Shown: piece after piece, positions 344 to 41,658 of the stretch
Layout of the letters: every line of letters begins with the position of its first letter
Position numbering within the stretch: the first letter of the stretch is position 1
Source: Sphingomonadaceae bacterium
GTDB lineage: Bacteria; Pseudomonadota; Alphaproteobacteria; Sphingomonadales; Sphingomonadaceae
DNA length: 43,213 nucleotides
Reading direction: 5' to 3'
NCBI GenBank assembly: GCA_016462305.1
Contig: JAEMTM010000002.1
Coordinates: 1 to 43,213 of the forward strand
Program-made: the position numbers and the translations under genes
Notes under the pieces: generated by a model
Database searches by the model: none
The model's input: only the letters and a program-made list of their open reading frames with translations
Told to the model about the DNA's origin: nothing

Positions 344-1516
344 CTATTCGACCGCACCGCTTCGCACTAACGCTGTGATACTGGGTTCGTCATAGCCGAG
401 CGACGCCAGAATTGAAGAAGTGTGTTGGCCGGCATCGGGAATGATACGCGATACCCCGAGGCGACGACCGTTCATTTCAATGGGAATGAGCGGAAGCCGT
501 GTTTCGCCGCCGCCATTTAGCGCGACGGGTTCGAGCCCACCACTTGCTTCGAGATGCGGGTCGTCAAACATATCCTCCGGCCGAGCGATAGGCGCGAAGG
601 GCAGGCCGGAACCTTCAAGTTTCGTAATAATTTCGTCCCGGGTAAACGCCTGCATCACGTCACGAATAATAGGCATGATCCGGTCGCGCGCCAGCACGCG
701 GACATTGTTGGCGCGAAGCGTTTCGTCCGCCCATAAGTCGTCGAGGCCGAACAGGGCACAGAATTTCTCCCAGAGGCTGTCGGTGACAACGCCGATAAAG
801 ACCGGATCGTCCTTGGTCTCGAATACATCATAGACTGCCCACGCAGAGATGCGCGCGGGCATTGGGGCGGCGGCCTGGCCAGTGACGGCCATTTGCGCCA
901 TATGCTGCGCGATTAGGTAGACCGTGGTTTCGAAGAGTGCCGTCTGTACTTTCTGACCCCTACCAGTGCGGTGGCGTTCCTCGAGTGCGGCTTGTACTGC
1001 GATAACGCCAAACATTCCGCCTGTAATATCAACCACGCTAGACCCAGCTCGTAAAGGGCGCCCGGGCGGTCCGGTCATATAGGCAAGTCCACCCATCATT
1101 TGCGCAACCTCGTCCAACGCGGTTCGTTGCTCGTAGGGGCCTTTCAGAAAGCCTTTAGCCGAACAGTAAATGAGTCGGGGATTAGTTGCGGATAGGCTTT
1201 CATAGCTTAGGCCTAATCTGTCCATCGCACCGGGGCGGTAATTCTCGACCAGCACGTCGGCGCTGTCTATCAACTTTCTTGCGACTGCAATGCCATCCGT
1301 CGATTTCAGGTCGAGGCAGATACTTTGCTTGCCCCTGTTGAAGGTTGGGAAATAACCCGCACCCGACCCGAGTAGGGTCCTTGTTCGGTCTCCGCCGATC
1401 GGCTCTACATGAATTACCTCTGCCCCTAATGCCGCGAAGATTGCGCCGACCGATGGCCCCATAATCATATGGGCGAACTCGACCACACGAATACCAGAAA
1501 GAGGCGTGTCGCTCAT
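344..1516 (-). CDS. Family III (CaiB/BaiF) CoA-transferase
   Basis: PLSGIRVVEF start, NRGKQSICLDLK, ADVLVENYRPG, catalytic Asp in SVVDITGG. ATGA-coupled to the upstream lyase. Confidence 0.93.
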   Translation of the reverse strand: MSDTPLSGIRVVEFAHMIMGPSVGAIFAALGAEVIHVEPIGGDRTRTLLGSGAGYFPTFNRGKQSICLDLKSTDGIAVARKLIDSADVLVENYRPGAMDRLGLSYESLSATNPRLIYCSAKGFLKGPYEQRTALDEVAQMMGGLAYMTGPPGRPLRAGSSVVDITGGMFGVIAVQAALEERHRTGRGQKVQTALFETTVYLIAQHMAQMAVTGQAAAPMPARISAWAVYDVFETKDDPVFIGVVTDSLWEKFCALFGLDDLWADETLRANNVRVLARDRIMPIIRDVMQAFTRDEIITKLEGSGLPFAPIARPEDMFDDPHLEASGGLEPVALNGGGETRLPLIPIEMNGRRLGVSRIIPDAGQHTSSILASLGYDEPSITALVRSGAVE

Positions 1517-2433
1517 ACCGATTTCCTTTGCGCGAAATCGAGCGGAAGACCGGCATCCGGCGTAAAACCGTACAGTTCTTCACCGGGCAACGCTGCTGCG
1601 ACAATTTCCCGGACCTTGAGCAATTTTTCAAGATCTATACCCGTCTCGAGTCCCATCGCCTGAAGCATGAACACCAAATCCTCGGTGACGATATTGCCCG
1701 AAGCCCCCGGCGCAAACGGACAACCGCCAATCCCGCCGAGCGAGGCATCGAAAGTGGTGATGCCCTCCTCCAGCCCCGCGAGGACGTTCGCTAGACCCAA
1801 CCCGCGCGTATTGTGGAGGTGGAGCGTGGTCATATATTGCTTGCCGACCGCAGCCTGTACCTTGCGTGTAAGGCGCTTGACTTGAGCGGGGTCGGCATAA
1901 CCTGTCGTATCGGAAAGGCTCAGTTCCTTTGCACCTGCCTCAACTGCTGCTTCGGCGAGGCGAACAACCTGGTCCTCGGGCACATGACCTTCAATGGTGC
2001 AGCCGAACGCAGTCGAAAGCCCGACCGCAAAATGGATTCCTGCGGCTTCGGCCATTTCAGCTATTGTGCAGATTTCTGCGATCATCGTGCGGTGGTCTTT
2101 CCGTACATTTTTGATCGAATGCGTCTCCGACATCGAAAAGGGGATGGACATGCCGTGCACCCCCGCCTCGACGGCCCGCGCCGCACCCATGGCGTTCGGA
2201 ACAAGCGTTACGACATTGAGGCCCGGAATGGTCTTGGCAAAGGCGACAACTTGAGCGGTGTCGGCAAGTTGCGGAAGCAATGTGGGCGGCACAAAGCTAC
2301 CCACCTCGATCTCGCGCACGCCCGCTTCCGCCTCGGCCTGGATCCAGGCCTTTTTGGCCTCGAATGGCATGATGCTTTGAATGCTTTGTAACCCGTCGCG
2401 CGTGCCGACTTCGCTGACAAGAATTGCGGTCAT
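1513..2433 (-). CDS. HMG-CoA lyase family (DRE-TIM) acyl-CoA C-C lyase, citramalyl-CoA-lyase-like
   Basis: EVGTRDGLQ, DTTG, HLHNTRG, GGIGGCPFAPGASGN motifs. Start re-called to ATG 2433, which overlaps the leuD-like stop (ATGA). Confidence 0.92.
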   Translation of the reverse strand: MTAILVSEVGTRDGLQSIQSIMPFEAKKAWIQAEAEAGVREIEVGSFVPPTLLPQLADTAQVVAFAKTIPGLNVVTLVPNAMGAARAVEAGVHGMSIPFSMSETHSIKNVRKDHRTMIAEICTIAEMAEAAGIHFAVGLSTAFGCTIEGHVPEDQVVRLAEAAVEAGAKELSLSDTTGYADPAQVKRLTRKVQAAVGKQYMTTLHLHNTRGLGLANVLAGLEEGITTFDASLGGIGGCPFAPGASGNIVTEDLVFMLQAMGLETGIDLEKLLKVREIVAAALPGEELYGFTPDAGLPLDFAQRKSV

Positions 2434-3023
2434 ACCGTTGCCCCAAAATAAATCCACGGACGTTTCGCTCGGTCAGCGGCTTGCCACGTGGTGATTGCAT
2501 GCGCGTGTTTCAGCGTCAGGTCTATCGCGTCAAGTCCTTCGAGCAGCATAGTTTTTTCGTCTTGTCCAATATCGAACTGGCGTCCGTTGACCGCCTGTGC
2601 AGTCAAGTCGACAATGGCATTGCCACCTGCAAGTATACCGATAAATGTTCGTGGTAAGGAAATGGGCACGATCCCATTGCGGATGCAGTTATTATAGAAA
2701 ATAGGCGCAAAGCTCTCTGCAATTACACATCTTATTCCATATTCTGCGAGTGCCCATACGGCGTGCTCGCGGCTGGAGCCGCAGCCGAAATTTGCGCCGC
2801 TCGCCAATATCTTCGCATCGCGATACTCGGGCTGGTTGAGAACGAAGTCTGGGTTTTCGGAACGTGTTTTCGCGTCATAATAACGCCAAGGCGCAAACAA
2901 GCCATCGGCGAGGCCGGTTTTGCCCGTCGATCTCATCTCGCGGGAGGGAATGATCGTATCTGTATCGACATTGTCGCGGATCAGAGGCGCAACCACAGAT
3001 GTTAGAGAGGTGAAAGGCGTCAT
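2430..3023 (-). CDS. leuD: LeuD-like aconitase-family small subunit (isopropylmalate/alkylmalate dehydratase)
   Basis: DNVDTDTIIP, GANFGCGSSREHAVWAL, SFAPIFYNN motifs. Context suggests a catabolic paralogue rather than the leucine-biosynthetic gene. Confidence 0.9.
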   Translation of the reverse strand: MTPFTSLTSVVAPLIRDNVDTDTIIPSREMRSTGKTGLADGLFAPWRYYDAKTRSENPDFVLNQPEYRDAKILASGANFGCGSSREHAVWALAEYGIRCVIAESFAPIFYNNCIRNGIVPISLPRTFIGILAGGNAIVDLTAQAVNGRQFDIGQDEKTMLLEGLDAIDLTLKHAHAITTWQAADRAKRPWIYFGATV

Positions 3024-4369
3024 GGTGCGGTGATCCTGCCTGCGATCGCACTGGCGGCCACCACATCGGGGCTGGCGATATGCGTGCGAATTCCCGGTCC
3101 CTGCCGTCCTTCAAAGTTACGGTTGGTAGAAGAAATTACGCGACTGCCCGCCGGAAAGCTCTCGCCCCCCGAATAGAAGCAGAGCGAGCAACCGCTTTCT
3201 CGCCATTCGAAACCTGCCTTAACAAAGATTCGGTCAAGACCCTCCGCTTCCGCAGCGCGCTTGACCGCGGACGATCCCGGCACCACCAAAGCAAGGATGC
3301 CTTGGGCCTTAGTCTTGCCTTTGACGATGGCAGCGGCGCGGCGCAGGTCGGATAGGCGGGCGTTGGTGCAACTGCCGATAAAGGCGACATCGATTGCAAG
3401 GCCTGCAAGGGACTGTCCTGGTTCGAGGCCCATATAGTGCAGAGCGTTTATGTCGGCGTTAACAGGAACTGTTGCCGATAAGGCTACGCTTTGCGCAGGG
3501 GATGTACCCCAACTTATCATCGGTTCGATGCTCGCAGCATCAATGAAGATTTCAACATCAAAGTTAGCGCCATTGTCGGTGACAAGGTCGGACCAATCGG
3601 GCAGCGGATCGGGTGCGTAGCGGCGGCCTTGAAGATATGCGAAAGTGGCCTCATCTGGAGCGATGATCCCGGATAACGCCGCAAATTCGGTCGCCATATT
3701 GCATAAGGTCATACGCGCTTCCATGTCTAGCGCGCGAACCGTGTCGCCAGAGAATTCAACCACATGCCTGGCACCACCGCTCGCACCATGGTCGGCGATG
3801 AGACGAAGGATCATGTCCTTCGCGGTCACGCCGGGCGAGAGCTTACCTTCAAAAGTCACACGCATATTCTTGGGCTTGGCCACACGCAAAGTGCCGGTGG
3901 CCATCGCATGTTCGGCCTCGCTGCTACCAATGCCCCACGCGAAAGCACCGAACGCGCCTTGCGTGCAGGTGTGGCTGTCTGGCGCAATCAACGTACAGCC
4001 GGGAACAACGATGCCGAGTTCCGGAGAAATCACGTGTGTGATGCCCTGATCAGGATCATTGACATCGAACAGGGTAATCCCTGCTGCGTGACAGGCCGCA
4101 CGCGTTTCGGTGATGAAGGCATCGCCGCCAGGCATCAGCGTGCCGTCGCCGCGACCGGGACGGGTGTCGACTATATGGTCCATCACCGCAAAGACGCGCG
4201 CGGGATCAATTACAGCGCGGCCCGCCTCTGCCATCGACCTGAGCGCCGCGGCCCCCGTCCGCTCGTGCAGGAAAATACGGTCGATCGCGATCAACGCGTT
4301 TTCTCCGCCCAAATCGGTTACGACATGGGCATCCCAGATTTTCTCAAACAGGGTTTGCGGCTTAACCAG
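3020..4369 (-). CDS. leuC: LeuC-like [4Fe-4S] aconitase-family large subunit; probable CTG start at 4369
   Basis: DSHT, IGSCTNAR, GCSLC, STNRNFEGRQG motifs. Conserved N-terminus KPQTLFEKIWDAHVV lies in frame upstream of the ORF-track TTG (4312). Confidence 0.9.
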   Translation of the reverse strand: MVKPQTLFEKIWDAHVVTDLGGENALIAIDRIFLHERTGAAALRSMAEAGRAVIDPARVFAVMDHIVDTRPGRGDGTLMPGGDAFITETRAACHAAGITLFDVNDPDQGITHVISPELGIVVPGCTLIAPDSHTCTQGAFGAFAWGIGSSEAEHAMATGTLRVAKPKNMRVTFEGKLSPGVTAKDMILRLIADHGASGGARHVVEFSGDTVRALDMEARMTLCNMATEFAALSGIIAPDEATFAYLQGRRYAPDPLPDWSDLVTDNGANFDVEIFIDAASIEPMISWGTSPAQSVALSATVPVNADINALHYMGLEPGQSLAGLAIDVAFIGSCTNARLSDLRRAAAIVKGKTKAQGILALVVPGSSAVKRAAEAEGLDRIFVKAGFEWRESGCSLCFYSGGESFPAGSRVISSTNRNFEGRQGPGIRTHIASPDVVAASAIAGRITAP

Positions 4370-4850
4370 TCTGTCCCTCCAGCGAGCGCCAGTCCTTGGT
4401 CACCAATTTTTCCTGAATTGCGGTGCGGGTTTCGAGCTTGCCATCGCGGATCCAGTGCCAAGTGCGACAGCGGCTTTGTCCGTCATCAGAAATCTGGATC
4501 ATCTCGTACAGGTAAAGCAACGGGTCACCCTGCCGCTGCCAGTACAGCATCACCGTGCGGCTATATTCATCAAGGCCGACTTCGGCTGCCCAGCCCTTGA
4601 TGAGTTCGTTGTCCCACCATACCCGCTTGTCACGATACGCGGCGGGGAATTCCCGAATATCAGTTCGTCCGTCGTCCCAAGTATAGTGGTTTGTCTGGTG
4701 ATAAGGATGGGGTCCGCTTTCTGGAAAGCGACAGAAGAGGCGCGACTTATGCTGGTCAATTTGCGCATCCTTATCATTGAAATAAGTGTAAGTGCCATCC
4801 CACACGCCCTCGTGACGCGCCAGCAAAGGCATATCTTCGCGAATTCCCAT
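4362..4850 (-). CDS. DUF3598-like small beta-barrel (calycin-type) protein, copy 1
   Basis: RHEGVWDGTY (GxWxG), beta-rich and aromatic-rich. Clear paralogue of 10734..11183. Tightly packed in the operon. Confidence 0.75.
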   Translation of the reverse strand: MGIREDMPLLARHEGVWDGTYTYFNDKDAQIDQHKSRLFCRFPESGPHPYHQTNHYTWDDGRTDIREFPAAYRDKRVWWDNELIKGWAAEVGLDEYSRTVMLYWQRQGDPLLYLYEMIQISDDGQSRCRTWHWIRDGKLETRTAIQEKLVTKDWRSLEGQTG

Positions 4851-4852
4851 AG

Positions 4853-6211
4853 TCAGCTTCCTTCTCTTTGTAACAGCGCAAGATGATATGCACGCGCGGC
4901 GGTTGCCCGCATTAGCGCGCGGTGGTCTTTAGCCAAAGCCTCTGGTTCGAGGCATGAGGGATCGAAGCTGATCACATTGGCTGAAGAAGCTTGATACCAT
5001 GGCGTGAAGAATCGGCGCGCGCGCGTTATGGACCATGCCGCAGTCAGATAACTGCCAAAGCGGTCGGGCGCTAGGTCCGGAAACAATTGGACAGGATCGC
5101 CGCGTTCCGGATTTGGAATATCGACCGCAGTGCATCCAAGCGCGGTGCAGGCGGCTTCAATTACGGCTCGCCATTTATTCCATTCTGTTGGTATCTCATT
5201 GGGCCATCCGTCGGACAGGCCATGACCGGGCAGGTCGATGGCAGTTTCTCCCCCCGACATTTCGGTTCCCGGCGCATGGACAGTGAGCGTTGCACCACCT
5301 TTACGGCCTCTCCAGTGAATGAGGCCGTCGAAATCGGCGGTGTTCACATGGATAAATCCCGCTTTTTGATCGTCGGGCAGCGCCGGGCAATCCCGCAAAG
5401 GAAGCGTTCGAAGAAATAAAAGGCTAGCCTCATGCAAGTCGGTTGGCGTCGAAACCTTCCGCGCTTCCCAGCTTGCGGGCATAACGCCCAAGCGGTCGAT
5501 ATGCGCCTGTAGGGGGTCGCCGTCATAGGCGGTGATCAGCACGGGTGGCGTAATTGCATCAGGCGGCGGAATGTCACGTGGGGCGCGCAGCACAGCGCCA
5601 TATCCCAGGCGGTAAGAGTCGCCAGCATCGAGCATTTCCATCACGACAGCGTGGATGCGGGCCGGATCGTCGTGGGCGACCGAAAGTCGCGCTTCCGGTC
5701 GCACGTCGAACCAAGGAAAAAACCAGCTTTGTTCAAGAATGCGATTCCACAGCCAAGTTAGATGTTCGCCATAGCGCGACGGCAGGAATGGCGGCAGATA
5801 GGCGTCGCCGAACACAGCCATTTCTTCCGACGTCCAGATCGCATAACCGCCTACGGCCAGTCCGGTGAACATTTCCGGATGGCGTTTCAACGCATTTACC
5901 AGAATGATTCCACCCGAATGAAAACCGAAGGCCGCTGTCCGCTCTATTCCGAGTGCGCCGACGAATTCGACAATGGCTTCGGCATAGTCGCTGATGTCAG
6001 GGTCTGCCTTCGCCAGCGGAGCGGATTGACCAAAACCCGGCGTGTCAGGCGCGATACAGGTGAAATGTTCCCCCCATTCGCGCATCAGCGATTCATATTC
6101 GGCCGACGAGCGCGGACTTTGATGCACCATGAGCAGTGACGGGCCGCTGCCGCACCGACGATAATGGACGGTTCGACCATTGATTGTCAGATAGTGGCGG
6201 CTCAATCTCAT
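4853..6211 (-). CDS. Alpha/beta-hydrolase-fold protein with a partial second domain and an atypical G-F-H-S-G elbow
   Basis: GSGPSLLMVHQSP, APDTPGFGQS, and a second IDLPGHGLSD motif. Start re-called to ATG 6211 (MRLSRHYL). Confidence 0.85.
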   Translation of the reverse strand: MRLSRHYLTINGRTVHYRRCGSGPSLLMVHQSPRSSAEYESLMREWGEHFTCIAPDTPGFGQSAPLAKADPDISDYAEAIVEFVGALGIERTAAFGFHSGGIILVNALKRHPEMFTGLAVGGYAIWTSEEMAVFGDAYLPPFLPSRYGEHLTWLWNRILEQSWFFPWFDVRPEARLSVAHDDPARIHAVVMEMLDAGDSYRLGYGAVLRAPRDIPPPDAITPPVLITAYDGDPLQAHIDRLGVMPASWEARKVSTPTDLHEASLLFLRTLPLRDCPALPDDQKAGFIHVNTADFDGLIHWRGRKGGATLTVHAPGTEMSGGETAIDLPGHGLSDGWPNEIPTEWNKWRAVIEAACTALGCTAVDIPNPERGDPVQLFPDLAPDRFGSYLTAAWSITRARRFFTPWYQASSANVISFDPSCLEPEALAKDHRALMRATAARAYHLALLQREGS

Positions 6212-6218: not shown

Positions 6219-6236
6219 AATTTGTCCGGACAAATT
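6219..6236. promoter_or_regulatory. Operator box 1: perfect 18-bp palindrome AATTTGTCCGGACAAATT between divergent operons
   Basis: Read directly. Core TTGTCCGGACAA at 6222-6233 recurs at four other intergenic sites and resembles GntR/HutC-type TTGT-N4-ACAA boxes. Confidence 0.85.
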
Positions 6237-6295
6237 GCTCTCGACAAGCCCTTATCGCTTGGGCAAAAGGCTGGCAAGGGCAGGAGATGAATTTG

Positions 6296-6976
6296 ATGAG
6301 CCTGATCGGCACAAAAATGGTCAGTGACGGGAAGACGGCACGGCAGCTGTTTGAAGAAGTCATGGCCAATCCCGCACGAAAAAAGTTCGGATTCGGGGAA
6401 AAACTGGCCATCGTCAACGTCGATTTTCAGCAGGCCTATACGCGTACCGATATGTTTGCGACTGCCTATGAGACCGACCCGCGCCAGATTGAATATGTGA
6501 ACGTCATTTCGCGGCTGGCGCGGAACGAAGGAATGCCGGTTATCTGGTCACGCGTGGGCTACATAGAAAACGCTGGCGATGCTGGGGTGTGGGGCACCCG
6601 GACAGATACGCCCGATTCGCTGCAGAATATCAAATATGGTTCGCAGCGTCATGCTTTCGACCCGCGGTGCCAGATCGAACCTAATGACCTGCAATATACC
6701 AAGCGAATGCCAAGCGCTTTTTTCGAAACACCGCTCGCCAGTTACCTGACCTGGCACAAAGTCGACACAGTGGTGGTTACCGGCGGCAGCACCTCGGGAT
6801 GCGTTCGAGCGACAGCGGTGGATGCTCTCAGCCACGGCTATCGCGCCATCGTTCCCATCGAAACCTGCGCCGACAAGCATGAAAGCTATCACTTTGCCAA
6901 TTTGACGGACCTGCAGCTGAAATATGCCGATGTCGAGTCGGTGCAGAGTGTCATTGACTGGCTTGAGGCGCGCTAA
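6296..6976 (+). CDS. Isochorismatase-family cysteine hydrolase, maleamate amidohydrolase (NicF)/N-carbamoylsarcosine amidase-like
   Basis: Asp (VNVDFQ), Lys (TKRMPSAFF), Cys (STSGCVRAT) triad. AGGAG RBS at 6282-6286 favours ATG 6296. Confidence 0.88.
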   Translation: MSLIGTKMVSDGKTARQLFEEVMANPARKKFGFGEKLAIVNVDFQQAYTRTDMFATAYETDPRQIEYVNVISRLARNEGMPVIWSRVGYIENAGDAGVWGTRTDTPDSLQNIKYGSQRHAFDPRCQIEPNDLQYTKRMPSAFFETPLASYLTWHKVDTVVVTGGSTSGCVRATAVDALSHGYRAIVPIETCADKHESYHFANLTDLQLKYADVESVQSVIDWLEAR

Positions 6977-7845
6977 TGCACGAAGGTGCCCCTGACCCCG
7001 GACTGTATGATTTTTCACCCTATCGGGATCGCAAAAGCATTGTCTGGCCCGGCGGTAAAAGCTGCGCTGTCTGGGTTGCACCCAATCTCGAATATTATGA
7101 GGTCGATCCGCCCGCGCACCCCAAACGCAAGGCATGGGCCCGGCCCCATCCCGATGTAGTCGGCTATTCCCACCGCGATCACTCGAATCGCGTATCGCAT
7201 TGGCGCATGGCTGATGTAATGAGCAAGCATGGTTTCCCGGGTTCGGTCAGCCTCTCAGTTGCTTTATGCCAGCACCACCCTGAGGTCGTGGCTGATGCAA
7301 AGGCGCGCGGTTGGGAGTTTTTCAGTCACGGCATTTACAACACGCGCTACGCATACGACATGTCGGAAGAGCAGGAGCGCGCTATCATCGAGGATTCGAT
7401 TGCGACCGTGCGTGAGGCAACAGGCCAGACAATCCGCGGCTGGCTTGCGCCGGCGTTGACGCACACGCCGCATACACTCGATCTGATCGCTGCATATGGT
7501 CTAGAGTATACCTGCGACCTTTATCACGACGATCAGGTGCAGCCGGTAAAGACTGCGACCGGCAAGCTCGTTTCGATCCCCTACAGCCTTGAGGTCAACG
7601 ACCATTATGGCTTTTTCATCTACAATATGAGCCCGCGTGAATATGCGGACACGCTGGTGCGGCAATATGAACGGCTTGCGGATGAGGGCGGTACCGTAAT
7701 GTGCATCCCATTGCATGCTTATTTGATCGGTCAGCCGCATCGGATCGGGCCGTTCGAAGAAGCGTTGCGCTATATCGCGGCCGACGGACGGGCTTGGCTG
7801 ACGAAGGCAGGCGATATTGTTGACGCATGGAGAGCGCAGCAGTGA
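6976..7845 (+). CDS. NodB/polysaccharide-deacetylase-fold amidohydrolase (PuuE-like), copy 1
   Basis: WPGGKSCAVWVAPNLE, FFSHG, GWLAP, IPYSLEVND, PLHAYLIGQPHR. No signal peptide. Confidence 0.87.
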   Translation: MHEGAPDPGLYDFSPYRDRKSIVWPGGKSCAVWVAPNLEYYEVDPPAHPKRKAWARPHPDVVGYSHRDHSNRVSHWRMADVMSKHGFPGSVSLSVALCQHHPEVVADAKARGWEFFSHGIYNTRYAYDMSEEQERAIIEDSIATVREATGQTIRGWLAPALTHTPHTLDLIAAYGLEYTCDLYHDDQVQPVKTATGKLVSIPYSLEVNDHYGFFIYNMSPREYADTLVRQYERLADEGGTVMCIPLHAYLIGQPHRIGPFEEALRYIAADGRAWLTKAGDIVDAWRAQQ

Positions 7846-11760: not shown

Positions 11761-11762
11761 CG

Positions 11763-11999: not shown

Positions 12000-12000
12000 C

Positions 12001-16274: not shown

Positions 16275-16275
16275 T

Positions 16276-21879: not shown

Positions 21880-21903
21880 TTGACTAAAAAGTTGTCCGGA
21901 CAA
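21880..21903 (+). promoter_or_regulatory. -35 (TTGACT, 21880-21885) with operator box 3 (TTGTCCGGACAA, 21892-21903) in the promoter spacer
   Basis: Read directly. Typical repressor placement upstream of the long plus-strand CoA operon. Confidence 0.8.
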
Positions 21904-21944
21904 ATTGTGTGGCCAAACATTCTGCGGGAGCATATCAGGCGGCC

Positions 21945-23265: not shown

Positions 23266-23276
23266 GGAGAATGTAA

Positions 23277-25645: not shown

Positions 25646-25648
25646 ACC

Positions 25649-32551: not shown

Positions 32552-32561
32552 GGAGGAAAAC

Positions 32562-33661: not shown

Positions 33662-34527
33662 TGCAGGAAGAACGGATCGACTGGCCGGATGGCGCCAAGT
33701 TGGCGCTCAGCATCGTTATCAATGTCGAGGAAGGCAGCGAGATGACCGTTGCCCGCGGCGACCGTGGGATGGAGCCAGTCGACGAACTGGGCGTCCATGT
33801 CAAATCGCCCATCCGTAACTATTCGAACGAGAGCAACTATCTTTACGGTATAAAAGCAGGTGCGCCGCGTGTCGTCAAACTGCTCAAAGAATATGATATT
33901 CTCGCCAGCTGGACCGTCGCGGCGCTTTCCCTCGAAAATCATCCGGAAATCGCGCAGGCCATAGTCGAGCTTGGTCATGAACCGGTAAGCCATGGCTGGC
34001 GCTGGGTGCACCAGTTCAAGATGAACGAGGCGGAAGAGCGTGATTTCATACGCAAGGCCATCACCAGCATCGAAAAGACCACCGGCACCCGGCCCTATGG
34101 TTGGCTCTCGCGCTATCTGCTCACCGACAACACCCGCCGCCTGCTGATTGAAGAGGGTTTTACGTATCATATGGACGATTATTCAGGTGACGTGCCTTTC
34201 TGGGACCGCGATTGCGTCCCGGGCAAGCCGATTGTCATCGTCCCCTATCAACTAGACAGCAATGATATGAAAATGTGGACCGATCCGGCGATGACGCCCG
34301 ATCAATGGCTACATTATGCCAAACGCAATTTTGACCAGATTTATTCAGAAGGCATACAAGGCAATCCGAAGATGATGTCGCTGGGGCTCCACTTGCGAAT
34401 CATCGGGAGGCCCGGACGGATATGGGCGTTACAGGAATTCTTAGAGCACGTTCGGAAACATCCGGACATCTGGGTCACCACCCGCAATCAAATCGCGCAA
34501 CATTTTGCGCAAGGAAATCCGGCATGA
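33661..34527 (+). CDS. PuuE (allantoinase-type) NodB-fold cyclic amide hydrolase, copy 3
   Basis: WPDGAKLALS.VINVEEGSE, SHGWRW, VPYQLDSNDM, MMSLGLHLRIIGRPGR: full PuuE-type motif set. Confidence 0.88.
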   Translation: MQEERIDWPDGAKLALSIVINVEEGSEMTVARGDRGMEPVDELGVHVKSPIRNYSNESNYLYGIKAGAPRVVKLLKEYDILASWTVAALSLENHPEIAQAIVELGHEPVSHGWRWVHQFKMNEAEERDFIRKAITSIEKTTGTRPYGWLSRYLLTDNTRRLLIEEGFTYHMDDYSGDVPFWDRDCVPGKPIVIVPYQLDSNDMKMWTDPAMTPDQWLHYAKRNFDQIYSEGIQGNPKMMSLGLHLRIIGRPGRIWALQEFLEHVRKHPDIWVTTRNQIAQHFAQGNPA

Positions 34528-35276
34528 GCCTTCGTCTCGAACGCGACGGCCCTATAGGCCGGATCATGATCGACAGGCCTGAGAAGCGCAACGCCTTCAA
34601 TCAGGAAATGTGGGAGCAGTTTCCAGTATTGTTGGGTGCGGCGCTGATCGACCCCGCGATCCGCGTTGTGGTGGTGCAATCCGCTGCCCAAGGTGTTTTC
34701 TGCGCAGGCGCAGACATCAACGAATTGATGTCGCATAAGGACAATTCCGCATGGCGCGAAGCCAATCAGGCAGCGATCAACAGGACGCAGCACGAACTCG
34801 CTCGATTTGCCAAGCCGACGATAGCTTTTATTGATGGCGATTGCGTCGGCGGCGGATGCGGCATCGCGCTCGCCTGCGATATCCGCGTCGCTACCGCCGG
34901 ATCGCGGATCGGGATCACGCCAGCCAAATTGGGACTGGTCTACCCGCTTCATGATACCAAATTGCTCGTCGATCTGGTGGGGCCTGGGCAGGCCAAAAAG
35001 ATGCTTTACACAGGCGCGCTTCTCTCGGCGCAAGAAGCGCTGCGGATCGGTTTGGTCGAACTGATCGAGGATAGCGCCACCGCGCTGGCGGATCAGATTG
35101 CGGGCAACAGCGCACACAGCACGCACCAGATAAAGGGCTTTGTCCGCCGTATTCTCGATGGGCAGGCAGATGATGACCTGGAAACGAAACGCATCTTTGC
35201 CGATGCATTTACCACGCCCGACTTTATCGAAGGCACAAGCGCATTTGCCCGCAAACAAAAGGCCGAATTCAAATGA
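34524..35276 (+). CDS. Enoyl-CoA hydratase/isomerase (crotonase) family protein
   Basis: RPEKRNA, FCAGADI, KPTIA.IDG.C.GGG, ACDIR. Confidence 0.92.
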   Translation: MSLRLERDGPIGRIMIDRPEKRNAFNQEMWEQFPVLLGAALIDPAIRVVVVQSAAQGVFCAGADINELMSHKDNSAWREANQAAINRTQHELARFAKPTIAFIDGDCVGGGCGIALACDIRVATAGSRIGITPAKLGLVYPLHDTKLLVDLVGPGQAKKMLYTGALLSAQEALRIGLVELIEDSATALADQIAGNSAHSTHQIKGFVRRILDGQADDDLETKRIFADAFTTPDFIEGTSAFARKQKAEFK

Positions 35277-36175
35277 ACAATTTCCTCACACATGGCTGCA
35301 TCATGGGTGGCGTCGTGACAACGCCCAATTTGGATGCGGCGCTGGAGGATTATCATGGGCGGCTAGGGCTGAACATCGTTGAGCGCGGTGAACTGGCTGC
35401 TGATTTGGCTGCGAGTTGGAAGTGCCCGGCGAACGGGGGCGCACGCACCGCGACGCTGCAACCGCAAAGCGGCGCGCATTGCTTTATCCGACTGGTCGAA
35501 CAACCTGTGCCCGATGAGTTTATGCCGGTGCGGACATACGGATGGGCGGCCTTTGAGCTGACCGTGCAAGATGTCTATGGCTGGCCCGGGCGTCTGGAAG
35601 GCAGCGGTTTCGATATTGTCGGGCCACCCAAACCAATCGAAGGCCTACCCTATTTCATACCGATGCAGGTGACTGGGCGCGGGCGCGAGATGATCTATCT
35701 CAATGAAGTAGCAGAAAATACGCCGTCGTCCGACTTGCCCAAGGCCGCCTCACTGACCGACCATATATTCATCGTTATACTCGCGACGCATGACCGCGAA
35801 GCGAACCTGGCATGGCTGCAGGAAAAAATAGGCCTGGATGTTGGCGGCACTTACACGCTTGAATATACTATGATCAACAAAGCGTTTGGACTGCCTGACG
35901 GCACGCAATCCTCGATAACGATGGTTCAGAAGGACCGGCTGCCGATTATCGAAGTCGATGGCTATCCCAAACCCGCGACCGCTCGCCCACATACGCCCGG
36001 ATGCCTGCCACCCGGGAATGCGCTGGTGACTTTGGCAGTGGACAGTCTGGACGCGATCAACGCTGCGTTTATCGAGCCGCCGGCCGTGCACAGCGGAGCA
36101 ATTTATGCAGGGCGGCGGTCCGCGACGGTGGTCGGCATGGCGGGTGAGTTGTTGGAGCTGGTGGAAATCAGCTAA
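35273..36175 (+). CDS. Two-domain VOC-fold protein
   Basis: TPNLDAALEDY..LGL, YGW.A.EL.V.D, DHIFIVIL, C-terminal GELLELVE. Confidence 0.7.
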   Translation: MNNFLTHGCIMGGVVTTPNLDAALEDYHGRLGLNIVERGELAADLAASWKCPANGGARTATLQPQSGAHCFIRLVEQPVPDEFMPVRTYGWAAFELTVQDVYGWPGRLEGSGFDIVGPPKPIEGLPYFIPMQVTGRGREMIYLNEVAENTPSSDLPKAASLTDHIFIVILATHDREANLAWLQEKIGLDVGGTYTLEYTMINKAFGLPDGTQSSITMVQKDRLPIIEVDGYPKPATARPHTPGCLPPGNALVTLAVDSLDAINAAFIEPPAVHSGAIYAGRRSATVVGMAGELLELVEIS

Positions 36176-37146
36176 ACCACCAGCACCGTCGACCCGGTCG
36201 TCCTGCGACCTTCCAAATCGCTATGCGCCCTCGCCGCCTCCTCTAGCCCGTAACGCTGGCCGATATTGACCTTGATAATTCCCTGCCGGAACATGTTGAA
36301 TACATATTCGCTGCCTGCCGCGCGTTCCGCGGCGTGGTGGTAGTAGTCGAAAAGTGTCGGACGCGTGTTATAGAGCGAACCTTTCTGGGCGAGGATGCCG
36401 AGATTGACGCCGCCAACGGGCGCATCTGCATTGCCGTAATTTACAATCAGCCCGCGCCGCCTTGCACTATCGAGCGACGCTTCCCAGGTAGCCATTCCGA
36501 TACCGTCGAAGACTATCTCGACGCCGCGTCCGTCGGTCAGCAAGCGTACCTGCTTGGCAACATCCTCCTTGCCGTAAAGGATGACATGGTCGGCCCCGAA
36601 TTCACGCGCCAAGGCAGCTTTTTCTTCGGTGCTGACCGTTCCGATGACGTTAGCGCCGATATGCTTGAGCCATTGCACCAGCATTAGGCCGACACCGCCG
36701 GCTGCAGCGTGGACCAGCACGTTCGATTTAGGTTGCACCTTGGCGCAGCGTTCGACCAGAAACTCAGTGGTGCAGCCCTTCAATATGCCTGCCGCAGCAA
36801 TCTCGTCGCTGATATCGTCGGGTATCAAGAACAAGCATGCAGCCTCAATATTGCGCGCAGTCGCATATGCGCCAAGCGTCGGACCGAAACAGCAGACCCG
36901 GTCGCCGACCTCCCAGTCTGTCACGCCCTCGCCCAGCGATTCGATAACGCCCGCTGCCTCCAGCCCGAGTCCGCTAGGGAGCGCTACCGGATAAATACCG
37001 CGTCGGTGATAAGTGTCGATGAAGTTAAGGCCAACCGCAGTATTGCGCATCCGCACTTCGCCCGGACCCGGCGGCGACAGTTCGACGTCTACCCAGTTTA
37101 TGACTGCTGGCCCGCCAACTTCAACAATCTGTGCTGCCCGTTCCAT
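36172..37146 (-). CDS. NADPH:quinone oxidoreductase (zeta-crystallin/MDR family)
   Basis: GLNFIDTYHR.G.Y, GLEAAG, HAAAGGVG, TTGSTVL. ATG 37146. Confidence 0.92.
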   Translation of the reverse strand: MERAAQIVEVGGPAVINWVDVELSPPGPGEVRMRNTAVGLNFIDTYHRRGIYPVALPSGLGLEAAGVIESLGEGVTDWEVGDRVCCFGPTLGAYATARNIEAACLFLIPDDISDEIAAAGILKGCTTEFLVERCAKVQPKSNVLVHAAAGGVGLMLVQWLKHIGANVIGTVSTEEKAALAREFGADHVILYGKEDVAKQVRLLTDGRGVEIVFDGIGMATWEASLDSARRRGLIVNYGNADAPVGGVNLGILAQKGSLYNTRPTLFDYYHHAAERAAGSEYVFNMFRQGIIKVNIGQRYGLEEAARAHSDLEGRRTTGSTVLVV

Positions 37147-37151
37147 TTTGA

Positions 37152-37457
37152 TTATACCCCTGACAATTCGCCTTCGATCAATAGCACCTGACATTCGGCG
37201 AGGCCATCACGCAGCTTTTTAACTTCGGCATATTCGGGTGAGTTCCAAAAGCGCAAAGCCGCGTGCTTGTCAGGCCATTGAGAAATGACAACTGATGCGC
37301 CGCTTCCAAAGCCGCCTTCCAGCAATTCGGCACCGGGCGCACGAAGCACATATTTGCCGCCGAACCGGGCTACCAATTCAGCGGCTGCCTTACCATATCC
37401 GCCGACAAACGCGTCGCGGTCGGCTATTTTGGCGGCGATAATCATATAGGCAGGCAT
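37152..37457 (-). CDS. DUF1330-like protein (cytoplasmic)
   Basis: MPAYMI, FGGKY, LEG, FWNSPEYAEVKKLR. GGAG RBS before ATG 37457. Confidence 0.85.
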   Translation of the reverse strand: MPAYMIIAAKIADRDAFVGGYGKAAAELVARFGGKYVLRAPGAELLEGGFGSGASVVISQWPDKHAALRFWNSPEYAEVKKLRDGLAECQVLLIEGELSGV

Positions 37458-37522
37458 ATCAATTCTCCGGCTAAATTCGGATTGTTGCAAAATAGATACA
37501 GTGCGTATTCATCGCCAAACTA

Positions 37523-37543
37523 TGTTAAAATTTGTCTGGACAA
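37523..37543 (+). promoter_or_regulatory. Extended -10 (TGtTAAAAT, 37523-37531) directly followed by operator box 4 (TTGTCTGGACAA, 37532-37543)
   Basis: One-mismatch copy of the palindrome in the divergent region ahead of TBDR2. Confidence 0.75.
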
Positions 37544-37602
37544 CTTTTGCGTAAAATGGAAGCATGCTTTTCGAAGATCACGAATTTTCAGGGAGGTTGA
37601 TC

Positions 37603-40182
37603 GTGAAAAGCTTTTCCAAACCGTTTTTGTTGACCGCATGTTCGCTTATGCCTTTTGCGCTTGTCGTGCCATCCGCCGCCCATGCGCAGGACGCCGCTTC
37701 CGTAGCGGAAGAAGAACAGGGCGGAATCCCCGAAATCCTCGTCACCGCCCGCAAGGTCGAGGAATCGCTATCAGAAGCTCCCGTCGCGGTATCAGTGATT
37801 ACCGCAGATTCCATCGCGCAACAGGGGCTCAACTCGCTTGACGATTTCGCCAAGCAGGCCGTCGGCATCAGCTTCAGCCAGGCCTTTGGTCGTACTACGG
37901 ATCGTCCGGTAATCCGCGGCGCGTCCAACGTGTTGGCAGGTGTGCAGGCGGGCGTCGAAACTGGCGCTGCCTTCTTCATCGACGGAGTGTATTATCAAGG
38001 CGATATCCAAGGTTTCGACCCCTCATCCATCGAGCGGGTAGAAATAGTCAAAGGGCCGCAGTCTGCTCTTTACGGTCGCAACACTTATGCTGGGGCCATT
38101 AATTACATCACCAAGGACCCGTCGGAGGATATTAGCGTCAGCGGGCGGCTGCGTGCCGCCGAGCATAATGAATATGAAATCTCCGGTTCGGTCTCGGGGT
38201 CCCTGCTTGATAACATGCTCGGTGTCCGTGTCGGCGGGCGCTTTTTCAAATATGGCGGTGAATATCGCAACCAGTTGACCGGCAAGCGCGTCGGACAGGA
38301 AGAAACCAAGTCGGCTTATGCCACTTTGACTTTCAAGCCGTTCGAAGATTTCAAAATGCGATCACGGTTTAGCTGGCAGAAGGACGATGACGGCCCGCTG
38401 GCCCTTTTTTTGCAAGGTGCGGCGGACAATAACTGCAGTCCCGGTTTCCGGTCGGCGCGCTATCGTACAGGCTCACCGTTTGTGCCTTTATCGCCTGCGA
38501 CCTTGGTATCCACCAACACGAATCAGTTTTATTGCGGCGTTATCAAGCCGCAGCCGAATAATGTTCGGTTGAACACCGATCCGATGATGATCAACGCTAC
38601 ACTTGGCACGCGCGATGGTACTGCTTATGATGGCATCACCAATGAGCAGTTTTCGATGACCAATATCATCGACTGGGATCTCGGCGGTTCGGGCTGGATC
38701 TTGTCGAGCCTGACCGGCTGGCGTGATAACAAGAATTTCTTCGGTACCGATTCCGATCATAGCGATGCGTTTGTATATTTTGCAGGTTCCGCGGCAAGCA
38801 CGCTTGGCACCGAACCTGCATTTGCCAATACCAATCGCGATGACCAGCAGGACATCAGCCAGGAAATCCGCATTTCCAGCCCTACGGACAATCCGTTCCG
38901 CATTCTTGTCGGCGGCTATTATTTCCGGCAGGAGTTTCGTTCGCAGGACATTACCTTTGCCAGCGGCACTGCCGGGCTTGGCGTCGGGCTCGATAGTTCT
39001 GAACATAACACGATCGTCAACAATGCCGTTTTCGGCCTTGCCGAATATGACTTCAGCGATGCTTTATCTGTAACTGCAGAGCTGCGCTATGCCGAAGAAA
39101 CGAAAACGCAGATTTCGCGCGGCGTGGGCGGGGCATCCGTATTCTGTGCGGGTGAGGCCAGCCGCCTCTCGGCATTCGGTGCGACAGGTGCGGGCAATGT
39201 TTGTCGCCCCGCATCGAAATTCACCGGTCTCGATCCACGGATTGCGATTAATTATACCACTCCAGGCGGCATGCTGATCTATGGCGTGTATGCGACAGGA
39301 CGCAAACCAGGGGGCTTTAACGGTTCGGCTGGCGTTACCGCCACCTTGCAAACGGGTCAGAATTTTGTCGAATATTTGCCTGAAAAATCGAAGGGGGGCG
39401 AACTGGGCATCAAATTCGATGCACTAGACCGCACCTTGCGCGGTACGGTTGCCGGGTTCTACAACGAGCTGACCAATGTCCAGTTGACGCAGGCCATTCC
39501 CAATCCATCGGGCACTGGAGCGTTGACCTCCATTGTCGCCAATTCGGGCAATGCCACAACCAAAGGCCTTGAAATCGAATTGCAAGCTGCCCCCACCGAT
39601 GGCCTTTTGTTTACAATGGGTCTTGCCTATGTTTCAGCGAAGTTCACGAAGGGTTGCGATGCGGATTATTTTATCCTGAATTCGGGCGGTCTGCGGACCA
39701 ACTTTGATACGCGCAATCCCACCGCCGCGGGGCTGGCTTTATGCGATATTTCTGGCAAGACGCTGCCGCTGGGATCTCCCTATATCGTCAATGGCTCGGT
39801 AAATTATGAAACCGGACTTGGGTCGGGCGACGGCAAATTGTTCGGTATTGCCAACTTTTCATACGAGGATTCGAAGTATATCCAGACCGACAATCTGGCC
39901 AAAACCGGCGACACGTTTCTGCTTAACGCGCGGCTTGGCTTTAAGACTAAGAACTTCACCATTGCGCTGTTTGGACGTAACCTGACCGATGAGGACTCGA
40001 TTCCACTGGCGACCCGCTGGTTCGACTTGCGTTACGGTGCGGGGACTACGGGACTGCCACCTCCCGCTGGCGTGACCTTCGATGGCCGTCCGGCGCAGGT
40101 CGAAACGGGAAGCCCGCGTGCGTTCTTCGGCGCGTTGCGTAAGGGCCGGACCTTCGGTTTGGAAGGCACGTTCAATTTTTAA
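37603..40182 (+). CDS. TonB-dependent receptor 2
   Basis: GTG start after GGGAGG; signal ending AHA-Q; EILVTARK; VEIVKGPQSALYGRN; C-terminal Phe. Confidence 0.95.
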   Translation: MKSFSKPFLLTACSLMPFALVVPSAAHAQDAASVAEEEQGGIPEILVTARKVEESLSEAPVAVSVITADSIAQQGLNSLDDFAKQAVGISFSQAFGRTTDRPVIRGASNVLAGVQAGVETGAAFFIDGVYYQGDIQGFDPSSIERVEIVKGPQSALYGRNTYAGAINYITKDPSEDISVSGRLRAAEHNEYEISGSVSGSLLDNMLGVRVGGRFFKYGGEYRNQLTGKRVGQEETKSAYATLTFKPFEDFKMRSRFSWQKDDDGPLALFLQGAADNNCSPGFRSARYRTGSPFVPLSPATLVSTNTNQFYCGVIKPQPNNVRLNTDPMMINATLGTRDGTAYDGITNEQFSMTNIIDWDLGGSGWILSSLTGWRDNKNFFGTDSDHSDAFVYFAGSAASTLGTEPAFANTNRDDQQDISQEIRISSPTDNPFRILVGGYYFRQEFRSQDITFASGTAGLGVGLDSSEHNTIVNNAVFGLAEYDFSDALSVTAELRYAEETKTQISRGVGGASVFCAGEASRLSAFGATGAGNVCRPASKFTGLDPRIAINYTTPGGMLIYGVYATGRKPGGFNGSAGVTATLQTGQNFVEYLPEKSKGGELGIKFDALDRTLRGTVAGFYNELTNVQLTQAIPNPSGTGALTSIVANSGNATTKGLEIELQAAPTDGLLFTMGLAYVSAKFTKGCDADYFILNSGGLRTNFDTRNPTAAGLALCDISGKTLPLGSPYIVNGSVNYETGLGSGDGKLFGIANFSYEDSKYIQTDNLAKTGDTFLLNARLGFKTKNFTIALFGRNLTDEDSIPLATRWFDLRYGAGTTGLPPPAGVTFDGRPAQVETGSPRAFFGALRKGRTFGLEGTFNF

Positions 40183-40210
40183 GGCATAACAACGAGCAGG
40201 ATGGGCCATG

Positions 40211-40248
40211 TAAACAAGGGGCGTCGGCAAACCGGAGTCCTTTGTTTA
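40211..40248. terminator. Probable bidirectional intrinsic terminator between convergent genes
   Basis: TAAACAAGGGGC-GTCGG-CAAA-CCGGA-GTCCTTTGTTTA imperfect hairpin with A-rich and T-rich flanks. Confidence 0.65.
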
Positions 40249-41658
40249 TATGCGCTCGGCGACCAACCGCGCCACCCGGTCACCGGATTCGAGCGCGGCC
40301 TCCATGCCCGACGCAGACTGCGCCATATGCTCTCCGGCGAAATGCAGCCGCTGGCCCTCGGCACGGGTGGCGCGGGCCAGCAGGGCCGCCTGCCCGATGC
40401 CAATATGGTGATAGATGCCCCGTGCCATCGGGCTTTGCTGCCAGCTGAATAGCCGCTCCATCTTCAACTTTCCCTTGGCAGAGGGCCGCGCATTCTCGAT
40501 GCGGGCAATGATCTCGGTTGCGGCCAGCGCTGGATTGGTGCGGACCAGAAGGTCGGCACCTGCGCCGACGGCCCAGACTTTTAGCATTGCCGGATTGTCG
40601 CCCAGAACGAACACCCGTCCGATCAGCGGATCGTCGGTCCACAATGTTTCGGGAAGACCGTCCGATTTCCAGAAAGCCTCGCTCGCGGACAGATAGGCAA
40701 AGCTCGCGCGGGTGTAGGGTAATGATGCAATGAGCGTTGCGATTGCAGCATCGAGATAGCCATCAATCGGAATGTGGCGCAATGCGGAGAAAGGGATGGT
40801 GCAGATAGCGTGGCGCCCCCGGACGCTGTTCTTTGTTGTCCTGACGGTAACGCCATTTGCATCCTCGCTGATTCCTGTCACGAGTTGCCCCAGCCGGATC
40901 GGTGATTTGATCCGCGCCGCCATTGCTTCGGGCAGGCGCTGTGACCCGCCGTCTATTGTCGCGGTTGGCCCGGCCCCCGCGCGAAAAATTGCGGCAGTAC
41001 GCAGCGCGTGAAGTTGCGACATACTGGCCAGCGTATTGCCGTTCATATTTGCCTGAATCAGCCGCAGCGCCTCGTCGCTTGCACCTGCCTGACGGAGCGC
41101 GGTGGCATAGGAAATGTCTAGCGTAGGGTCAGCGTCCAGCCATGCCTCAGGATTGGCAAGGCGACGCAATTTGGTGCCATAAGAGAAGCCCAGCGCCGAC
41201 GGCAAAGTCGAACGCTCGTTGGCGGAAAGTCTGTTCGCCGCCGCCGTCGGCCAGTCTGCAGGCGTAACCGTTTGCCCGTTGATGTTGAACAAGGCAGAGC
41301 TAGACTCGGCAATTCCGGCCCCGGCTCCGCCTCTTTCGCTCAATCCTACTTTCAAATCATTCGCGATAGCACGCAGCAACCTGTAGCCCGTTCCGACTTG
41401 AATACCGCCAGCCTCGGGTTCACCCGGCAGGTCATAAAGCGTATGCAGCCGTCCGCCGACGCGCTTTTCGCCTTCGACGATGACGGTCTTTAGTCCAGCC
41501 GCTTCAAGTTTGTGCGCCGTTAACAATCCGGCCAACCCCGCGCCAATGATAACGACATCGACCTCGGTGCGCCCCCATGCGGCGCGCGGGGCGAAACCGG
41601 CGACCAAAGCCGCGCTCGTTCCCTGAAGAAAATGGCGGCGGTTGGTGGCAACGGTCAT
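40246..41658 (-). CDS. Tat-exported flavin-containing amine oxidoreductase (MAO/LAAO family)
   Basis: NRRHFL twin-arginine leader, IIGAGLAGL, RVGGR, EAGG, HFAGEH, GMEAALESG. Confidence 0.92.
   Translation of the reverse strand: MTVATNRRHFLQGTSAALVAGFAPRAAWGRTEVDVVIIGAGLAGLLTAHKLEAAGLKTVIVEGEKRVGGRLHTLYDLPGEPEAGGIQVGTGYRLLRAIANDLKVGLSERGGAGAGIAESSSALFNINGQTVTPADWPTAAANRLSANERSTLPSALGFSYGTKLRRLANPEAWLDADPTLDISYATALRQAGASDEALRLIQANMNGNTLASMSQLHALRTAAIFRAGAGPTATIDGGSQRLPEAMAARIKSPIRLGQLVTGISEDANGVTVRTTKNSVRGRHAICTIPFSALRHIPIDGYLDAAIATLIASLPYTRASFAYLSASEAFWKSDGLPETLWTDDPLIGRVFVLGDNPAMLKVWAVGAGADLLVRTNPALAATEIIARIENARPSAKGKLKMERLFSWQQSPMARGIYHHIGIGQAALLARATRAEGQRLHFAGEHMAQSASGMEAALESGDRVARLVAERI

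Follow-up and report, generated by a model that had tools for sequence, protein, structure and literature searches.

A conserved gene island of aquatic Sphingomonadales as a candidate lower pathway for the degradation of linear tetrapyrroles

Introduction

According to the accessible part of a recent preprint, the yearly production of chlorophyll amounts to approximately 1.15 billion tonnes and its breakdown by prokaryotes is largely unexplored; the prokaryotic counterpart of the PAO/phyllobilin pathway proposed in that text comprises upper enzymes only and stops at pFCC, and operon, gene-neighbour or Sphingo terms are not mentioned there (bioRxiv 10.64898/2026.03.19.712979). In the present study we analysed a 43,213-nucleotide contig (JAEMTM010000002.1; hereafter the window) of a Sphingomonadaceae bacterium (assembly GCA_016462305.1), which carries an island of catabolic genes marked by the gene of an exported beta-barrel protein, DUF1838. 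This island probably represents the missing lower pathway, i.e. the one leading from linear tetrapyrroles or imide fragments to ammonia, pyruvate and acyl-CoAs. The likely substrates are bilins, phycobilins, opened chlorophyll catabolites, or the pyrrole and imide fragments of these compounds.

Several described systems share features with the island. The maleamate pathway of nicotinate and nicotine uses NicF/Ami, and the dimethylmaleate route of Eubacterium barkeri uses DmdAB and Dml. The window has in common with them an isochorismatase-family protein with intact Asp/Lys/Cys and a LeuCD-type hydratase (an ICL/PEP-mutase lyase occurs in variants of the island), but it lacks a pyridine-ring hydroxylase or dioxygenase, has a CoA-dependent cleavage enzyme of the HMG-CoA-lyase type and places three cyclic-amide hydrolases first. 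Relatives of the core genes share islands with RCCR-like, Rieske and chlorophyllase-like genes, which recalls the PAO/phyllobilin pathway (PAO, RCCR; PDB 3aga, 2zxk), whereas the window itself contains neither PAO nor RCCR but carries genes of enzymes for ring opening, deamidation and CoA chemistry. Two small barrel proteins (calycins 1 and 2) are predicted by modelling to have the S-type fold of the phycobiliprotein lyases (CpcS/CpeS, CpcT/CpeT; PDB 3bdr, 4tq2, 4o4o), although the island hosts are heterotrophic and the gene context is catabolic. Finally, the right-hand operon shares five families and a VOC protein with the itaconate/methylsuccinate cluster, as far as the latter is described in the accessible text (Ict, Ich, Ccl, Mcd, MmgE/PrpD isomerase; PMC12290011), but it also contains two PrpD proteins, two CoA-transferases, a CoA ligase, an amidase, a PuuE-like protein and HapK, all within an island equipped with TonB-dependent receptors.

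An earlier note on this DNA, made from the sequence alone, had recognised no known pathway in the island. We arrived at the same result: the island belongs to none of the PAO/phyllobilin, nicotinate, itaconate, allantoin or leucine pathways, in the manner of which its parts work, and literature searches (with subscription papers and bioRxiv supplements outside reach) returned no pathway with this gene set and none taking pyrrole rings to central metabolism. The island is real, conserved and undescribed in the searchable literature.

Gene content and common operator

The window is the whole of contig C81 of the analysed genome (G000), whose 2.06-Mb assembly is 86% complete. Pfam, NCBIfam and open reading frame (ORF) analysis revealed 40 genes between 344 and 41658. 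The uptake genes announced in the earlier note are present (two TonB-dependent receptors and one MFS transporter), as is the branched-dicarboxylate CoA chemistry, which forms two CoA routes and comprises a LeuCD paralogue, an HMG-CoA-lyase-like enzyme, three family III CoA-transferases, a CitE-like lyase, a MaoC hydratase, an acyl-CoA dehydrogenase, two MmgE/PrpD proteins, a CoA ligase and an enoyl-CoA hydratase. Six amide-hydrolase proteins were identified (one isochorismatase, three PuuE/polysaccharide-deacetylase proteins, one nitrilase and one amidase-signature enzyme); the earlier count of at least six C-N hydrolase-fold proteins is correct as to number, but its wording was loose, as four different folds are represented. 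The proposed export of enzymes held in part: a twin-arginine-like motif occurs in 13/17 homologues of the amine oxidase but in only 19/38 nitrilase orthologues (strict pattern), signal peptides having been assessed by eye.

The palindrome TTGTCYRGACAA was found at 6222..6233, 21125..21136, 21892..21903, 37532..37543 (where it reads TTGTCTGGACAA) and 41702..41713 (operators 1 to 5, respectively). These five sites, the number of which agrees with the earlier note, compare with a mean of 0.00 in 100 shuffles; genome-wide, all five matches lie on this contig and none elsewhere in the assembly. The same palindrome was detected 163 times across 69/80 DUF1838 loci of other genomes. The operators are placed ahead of operons or between divergent operons, e.g. 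operator 1 between the hydrolase-LeuCD and isochorismatase operons, and operator 5 lies just beyond position 41658, at which the note had ended the island.

A GntR/UTRA regulator of the HutC subfamily (26736..27461, minus strand; PF00392 and PF07702; start assigned from sequence), present in 32/80 DUF1838 loci, likely binds these sites, as judged from family precedent and co-conservation. We take TTGT-N4-ACAA to be the consensus shape of the HutC-subfamily type. The island resembles HutC-subfamily regulons in having a GntR and UTRA protein and repeated palindromes of this shape upstream of operons, but contains no histidine-utilisation genes. In the block 27494-36175 no operator was found even at two mismatches, and neither an operator nor a promoter was detected ahead of the PrpD block; its transcription may therefore start at operator 3 and continue through the repressor gene, which lies antisense to it. 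The repressor gene is located within the right-hand operon (26736-27494), 33 bp from the PrpD start and without an operator, an arrangement that recurs in many DUF1838 loci. The single regulon claimed for the island is deduced from the shared sites, and neither this block nor the repressor gene carries one. In RNA-labelled runs, the depth of the contig was flat over genes and intergenic DNA, with no sign of expression.

Distribution of the island

DUF1838 was detected in 52/301 genomes of the order, in 7/401 genomes of a draw from the phylum and in 26/111 genomes of a gammaproteobacterial family (f81). The island was found, with shuffled gene order, in aquatic Sphingomonadales, and the nearest relatives of its DUF1838 (96-97%) come mostly from metagenome-assembled genomes of Sphingorhabdus, in line with a Sphingorhabdus-like genome as the origin of the window. 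Besides the regulator, the 80 DUF1838 loci (Sphingomonadales-type genomes) contained genes of the MFS transporter (46 loci), the FAD oxidase (42), the nitrilase (37), CitE (37) and the PrpD pair (34). Whole-island comparison of the fetched regions, at a threshold of 37% identity over 45% of length, revealed 34, 31, 34 and 34 of the 40 genes in genomes G011, G062, G063 and G065, respectively, with the same operator in all of them. Two genomes of another order, G526 and G581, carry 25 and 31 of the 40 genes together with the same operator, and have CpcT-like genes inside the island. This recurrence of a shuffled gene set across genomes indicates that the island is a real accessory unit, which is conserved.

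Linkage with CpcT/CpeT bilin lyases

Fusions connect island proteins with bilin lyases of the CpcT/CpeT type, a link that emerged in this analysis in addition to the one with RCCR. CpeT-DUF1330 fusions (L102 and L103) are 49-51% identical to the product of window positions 11168-11638, a CpeT-DUF3598-like fusion is encoded in L123, and a CpeT-DUF1838 fusion (P0230) was found among 17 long DUF1838 proteins scanned, four others of which are cytochrome b5 fusions. Within the order, CpeT was present in 17/52 genomes with DUF1838 vs. 0/249 genomes without it, and the same tendency was observed within single families (2/25 vs. 0/172, 5/8 vs. 0/30 and 5/11 vs. 0/22). DUF1838 also accompanied CpeT in three of the four CpeT genomes of the 401-genome draw and in 4/4 of family f81; overall, it occurs in 24/25 proteobacterial genomes having a CpcT/CpeT domain. 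In 15 of 25 CpeT loci a homologue of a window gene is fused to CpeT or located within approximately 1.5 kb of it (in one of these it is only a generic SDR), and in nine of the 25 the amine-oxidase homologue directly adjoins the CpcT-like gene. The CpcT-like proteins mostly begin with signal-like leaders; the one aligned with 4o4o retained the positions of Tyr65, Arg66, Arg68, Cys116, Cys137, Asp163 and Trp175, which we take to be important.

Calycin 1 (4362..4850, minus strand) is a single DUF3598-like barrel predicted to have the BFA1/CpcS/CpeS fold (model pLDDT 93), with Foldseek matches to BFA1 (3.5e-6), Ycf58 (9e-6) and CpeS (1.6e-4). Calycin 2, 41% identical to it, is encoded together with a VOC lipoprotein and a DUF1330 protein (10156..11638, plus strand; Pfam). 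Both calycins fall under the Pfam cut-off of DUF3598, and neither has a Pfam CpeS match. The model of DUF1838 (17582..18493, minus strand; PF08894, E 1e-69; pLDDT 96) is a barrel of high confidence and gave no Foldseek match at E<=1e-3; in VIA comparisons with BFA1, nitrobindin and CpeS it reached Z scores of 7.8-8.2 (for Z 8.2, root-mean-square deviation 3.5 over 137 residues), and OmpT scored 8.1, outer-membrane barrels being alike in this respect.

Linkage with RCCR and other chlorophyll-type genes

An RCCR link, which the earlier note had mentioned for some cyanobacteria, exists in heterotrophs. RCCR (PF06405) is present in the related islands of G083, G750, G812 and G765. G083, alone among 49 genomes of the order with DUF1838, has RCCR-like genes; its island of approximately 95 kb holds two of them, one weak FDBR-like gene, two genes of Rieske oxygenases, a CpcT-like gene, an ICL/PEP-mutase lyase gene and 13 window orthologues (40-71% identity). 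A Pfam chlorophyllase match was also obtained for G083, the chlorophyllase matches being short and weak (PDB E 7e-7) and no more than leads. In G750, a single stretch of about 60 kb carries genes of RCCR-like, FDBR-like, Rieske and CpcT-like proteins together with those of DUF1838, the nitrilase, the isochorismatase, PuuE-like hydrolases PDA1 and PDA2, LeuCD, the CoA-transferase CoAT1 and the lyase; 13 window orthologues were counted in this island as well.

In family f81, RCCR occurs in 23/111 genomes. An orthologue of PDA1 was found in 21/23 genomes with RCCR vs. 8/88 without it (seven of these eight have DUF1838), and in six of the 21 it lies <=21 kb from RCCR; the corresponding values for DUF1838 are 14/23 and 12/88. 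Among 46 metagenomic RCCR loci, 19 have a Rieske gene beside the RCCR-like gene. The neighbourhood of RCCR, PAO and haem oxygenase genes, to which the earlier note had pointed as a check, yielded co-occurrence and linkage with RCCR in heterotrophic Proteobacteria, but no such gene in G000.

In G083 (L139:16-8525, L140:3412-4221) and in L156-L201, we observed a conserved grouping of RCCR-like and Rieske genes with those of a 197-aa protein (22/46 loci), an FDBR-like protein and a double-length nitrilase. This RCCR-like and Rieske module of heterotrophs may be the upper part of a bacterial PAO/RCCR pathway. According to the accessible part of a published account (PMC9306834), RCC is excreted by some green algae, and algal RCC is a possible source of substrate in fresh water.

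Two predicted branches for substituted diacids

The left-hand genes encode a putative maleate branch. LeuD and LeuC paralogues (2430..4312, minus strand; PRK12466 598 bits, above cut-off; TIGR00170 leuC 474 vs. 560) likely constitute a dialkylmaleate hydratase. A role in leucine biosynthesis was rejected, given the TIGR00170 score, the lack of leu-operon context and the presence of a separate LeuCD on contig C101 of the same genome (46%/39% identical to the island proteins). The (R)-alkylmalate made by LeuCD would likely be activated by CoAT1, a family III CoA-transferase (344..1516, minus strand; PF02515, E 1e-109) with an orthologue in 10/12 island sets, and the HMG-CoA-lyase-like enzyme (1513..2457, minus strand; PF00682; NF004283 272 bits vs. 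a cut-off of 246) is likely an (R)-citramalyl-CoA-type lyase. The isochorismatase-family Cys hydrolase (6287..6976, plus strand), whose Asp/Lys/Cys are kept and whose motifs are retained in 15-16/16 orthologues, has its best PDB match in 4l07 (E 3e-30), which we take to be the maleamate amidase Ami; it is likely an amidase of the maleamate type.

Downstream, PDA1 and PDA2 (6976..8747, plus strand; PF01522) are PuuE-like/CE4 hydrolases and likely ring-opening imidases or lactamases. Judging by sequence, the three PuuE-like proteins of the island share the fold of PuuE allantoinase; they score 256, 98 and 89 bits against the TIGR03212 cut-off of 425, on which ground plain allantoin use by a PuuE allantoinase was rejected. 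An aldehyde dehydrogenase gene follows (8696..10159, plus strand; PF00171). Maleate and dimethylmaleate hydratases and the (R)-citramalyl-CoA lyase of Chloroflexus are precedents for this set, and by analogy with them the left operons would turn substituted maleamate into a 2-oxoacid and an acyl-CoA. In some variants of the island a lyase of the ICL/PEP-mutase family, to which 2,3-dimethylmalate lyase belongs, is encoded near LeuCD and an isochorismatase. A satellite operon of G062 (L086:12606-17635), comprising genes of cytochrome c, a second LeuCD, an isochorismatase and an ICL/PEP-mutase-family lyase, resembles the dimethylmaleate route.

The right-hand genes form a predicted saturated-diacid branch. 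Its first part (21909..26731, plus strand) encodes a CitE/Ccl-like lyase, a MaoC/Ich-like hydratase, an acyl-CoA dehydrogenase and two family III CoA-transferases. The second (27494..36175, plus strand) encodes (i) two MmgE/PrpD proteins, (ii) a PaaK-like CoA ligase, (iii) an amidase, (iv) HapK, (v) an SDR, (vi) a PuuE-like hydrolase, which matches allantoinase at E 1e-68, (vii) an enoyl-CoA hydratase and (viii) a two-domain VOC protein. The RipC/Ccl and RipB/Ich matches (233 and 243 bits) are below the equivalog cut-offs of 375 and 340, and plain itaconate use was rejected for this reason, although the five families occur together. According to the accessible text of PMC12290011, every substrate characterised for the MmgE/PrpD family is a C4 dicarboxylate with substituents at C2/C3.

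The island thus seems to be equipped for substituted C4 diacids that arise from nitrogen rings, whether these diacids are unsaturated or saturated. Tetrapyrroles give maleimides from their pyrrole rings and succinimides from their reduced rings, and we infer that these two kinds of product correspond to the two diacid branches. The route drawn in the earlier note (imide, maleamate, dialkylmaleate, dialkylmalyl-CoA, pyruvate plus acyl-CoA) fits the enzyme families; the saturated-diacid branch was not separated from it there.

Remaining genes of the window

The alpha/beta-hydrolase (4853..6211, minus strand; PF00561), the start of which was assigned with regard to the position of the operator, has an extra C-terminal domain and a non-canonical G-F-H-S-G elbow, with His at the usual nucleophile position, that is retained in 5/5 orthologues; it may be a lyase or a cofactor-free oxygenase. 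The nitrilase-fold protein (13573..14703, minus strand; Pfam) has Glu88/Arg/Ser in place of Glu/Lys/Cys, and its orthologues keep LPEY, YRR and ASEE in 48/48 cases each. A canonical amidase of the nitrilase superfamily was rejected, since the Glu-Lys-Cys triad is absent and Glu-Arg-Ser is present in all 48 orthologues. A scan of viral contigs for this nitrilase gave no match. In a Nonomuraea (actinobacterial) record (L127:13141-15972), genes of an aldehyde dehydrogenase, a calycin and a nitrilase form one operon, at 45-50% identity.

The segment 11630..11996 of the window contains 3' remnants of two divergent conserved genes, left behind by a deletion of approximately 1.1 kb at ~11764; one relative (L085) carries an operator in the deleted part. 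The deletion is not an assembly error, because a contig from run X2 spans 9802-14369 without gaps and shows the same arrangement. A small partner protein and a protein of the class I SAM-methyltransferase fold are encoded at 12001..13562 (minus strand).

Further genes on the minus strand encode a VAO/PCMH-family FAD oxidoreductase (14715..16334; PF01565), solved structures matching only its FAD-binding half, the MFS transporter (16276..17541; PF07690) and TonB-dependent receptor 1 (18512..21046; Pfam). A membrane protein without a Pfam family (21189..21869, plus strand) has homologues in 39/80 DUF1838 loci. The right end of the island comprises a quinone-reductase-like MDR and a second DUF1330 protein (36172..37490, minus strand; Pfam), TonB-dependent receptor 2 (37564..40182, plus strand; Pfam) and a flavin amine-oxidase-family protein with a twin-arginine-like leader (40246..41658, minus strand; PF01593). 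At the end of the contig, a 450-aa ORF (41800-43152) has neither a Pfam/NCBIfam match nor a homologue in the 80 DUF1838 loci.

As regards DUF1838 elsewhere, four proteins (P0179, P0192, P0232 and P0266) join it to a cytochrome b5-like haem/steroid-binding domain, and on a Calothrix plasmid its gene is surrounded by transposases. The domain is also named in partly accessible literature on Streptomyces clusters.

Proposed pathway and alternative explanations

In the pathway that we propose, the pigment or its fragments would be imported by the two TonB-dependent receptors, and the DUF1838, amine oxidase, VOC and DUF1330 proteins, once exported, might bind the pigment and cut or oxidise its bridges. 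The fragments would then enter the cell via the MFS transporter, and the calycins, FAD oxidase and aldehyde dehydrogenase might bring each ring to the lactam or imide level. Ring opening would be catalysed by the three PuuE-like hydrolases, and nitrogen would be removed by the isochorismatase and amidase. Unsaturated rings (maleimides) would pass to LeuCD, CoAT1 and the HMG-CoA-lyase-like enzyme. Reduced rings, i.e. succinimides with two stereocentres, such as chlorin ring D or phycocyanobilin ring A would give, would pass to the two PrpD-type proteins acting as epimerases, followed by CoA activation, dehydrogenase, MaoC hydratase and CitE-like lyase. Enzyme-family precedent argues for the steps from ring opening onwards, while bridge cutting and the conversion to lactam or imide are the weakest part of the scheme. 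The window has no upper module with which closed macrocycles could be opened; in some marine bacteria such a module, made up of Rieske oxygenase, RCCR-like and chlorophyllase-like genes, is added. In a wider form of this proposal, to which we give an even chance, aquatic heterotrophs take up bilins or opened chlorophyll and mineralise linear tetrapyrroles, exported relatives of phycobilin lyases handle or detach the chromophore, the single pyrrole rings are degraded to ammonia, pyruvate and acyl-CoAs in separate maleate and succinate branches, and a plug-in Rieske/RCCR module extends the range to closed chlorins.

Several observations weigh against this proposal. The window contains no recognisable oxygenase (among its proteins there is no Pfam match to Rieske, and an island-type Rieske protein gives only a 74-residue, 24% match in G000). 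The methyltransferase pair has no obvious role, the Z scores of DUF1838 are borderline, and the calycin fold serves in the binding of lipids and haem as well, BFA1 being a chaperone. Neither RCCR, CpeT nor haem oxygenase was found in G000 or in G011, a complete genome with 34 of the 40 genes; none of 14 control genomes was positive in the RCCR search of G000, and the same search later found RCCR elsewhere. Outside f81, RCCR occurs in only 1/54 DUF1838 genomes tested, and a window orthologue is present in only 5/46 metagenomic RCCR loci (3/19 of those of at least 5 kb), many of which are short contigs. The fetched RCCR-linked islands contain neither the right-hand branch (CitE to VOC) nor the operator, and therefore the connection with RCCR holds only for a 13-gene core; for the right-hand branch, G526 and G581 provide the sole connection with CpcT.

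At the protein level, the RCCR-like proteins have Ala, or in a second type Val/Ile, at the position of an Arabidopsis RCCR Glu that we take to be catalytic, a second acidic residue being kept, and the aligned CpcT-like protein has no equivalent of Arg97. One gammaproteobacterium (G651) has a strong CpeT gene (L151:11241-11840) among housekeeping neighbours and no DUF1838. Moreover, the genomes compared are related, not independent, so that p-values overstate the associations, and those of f81 with RCCR are larger; physical linkage and fusions reduce this concern but do not remove it. The tetrapyrrole reading of the earlier note is supported in part by bilin- and chlorophyll-type fusions, co-occurrence and linkage, all of which are associations.

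It seems unlikely that the island serves general scavenging of substituted cyclic imides, lactams and C4 diacids, with the pigment genes (RCCR, CpcT, Rieske) as add-ons in some lineages and with alkylsuccinimides, citraconate or methylsuccinate as the substrates in the window. Such a role would accord with the absence of RCCR, CpeT and haem oxygenase from G000 and from most Sphingomonadaceae islands, with the itaconate/methylsuccinate-like make-up of the right operon and with the addition of hydantoinase/oxoprolinase and racemase genes in variants. However, two TonB-dependent receptors, several barrels and exported oxidases would not obviously be needed for small imides or diacids, the Ccl and Ich scores are under their cut-offs, homologues of three window proteins are fused to CpcT, and the modelled fold of calycin 1 is that of CpcS.

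Quite unlikely is the use of an unrelated large N-heterocycle or alkaloid (a substituted pyridine, a purine-like compound, or an algal or cyanobacterial metabolite) by a maleamate-type route with the barrels as generic binders. Flavin amine oxidases act on alkaloids, and the nearest PDB entries to the isochorismatase are 4l07 and 3ot4/3uao, presumably the maleamate amidases of the nicotine and nicotinate pathways; the allantoinase match of the right-hand PuuE-like protein would also fit. Yet none of the window proteins matched a molybdenum hydroxylase, a flavin monooxygenase or a 2,5-dihydroxypyridine dioxygenase in Pfam or NCBIfam, and the linkage with RCCR and CpcT would be left unexplained. 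Lastly, a non-tetrapyrrole oligopyrrole of secondary metabolism (prodiginine, tambjamine), suggested by the HapK family gene (PF11639) and by the methyltransferase-fold protein, given that prodiginines have a methoxy group, is very improbable, as the HapK barrel is small and generic, the genes found in linkage belong to the bilin and chlorophyll type, and the presence of DUF1838 in 52/301 genomes suggests an abundant substrate.

Significance

For the proposed lower pathway of linear tetrapyrroles, the island supplies genes that can be tested, a single predicted repressor whose operator is known, and cultured hosts, among them Sphingorhabdus contaminans KCTC32445 and Parasphingorhabdus marina DSM 22363. 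If the proposal is true, it would give functions to DUF1838, to single-domain DUF3598-like barrels, to the heterotrophic CpcT and RCCR homologues and to the Glu-Arg-Ser nitrilase.

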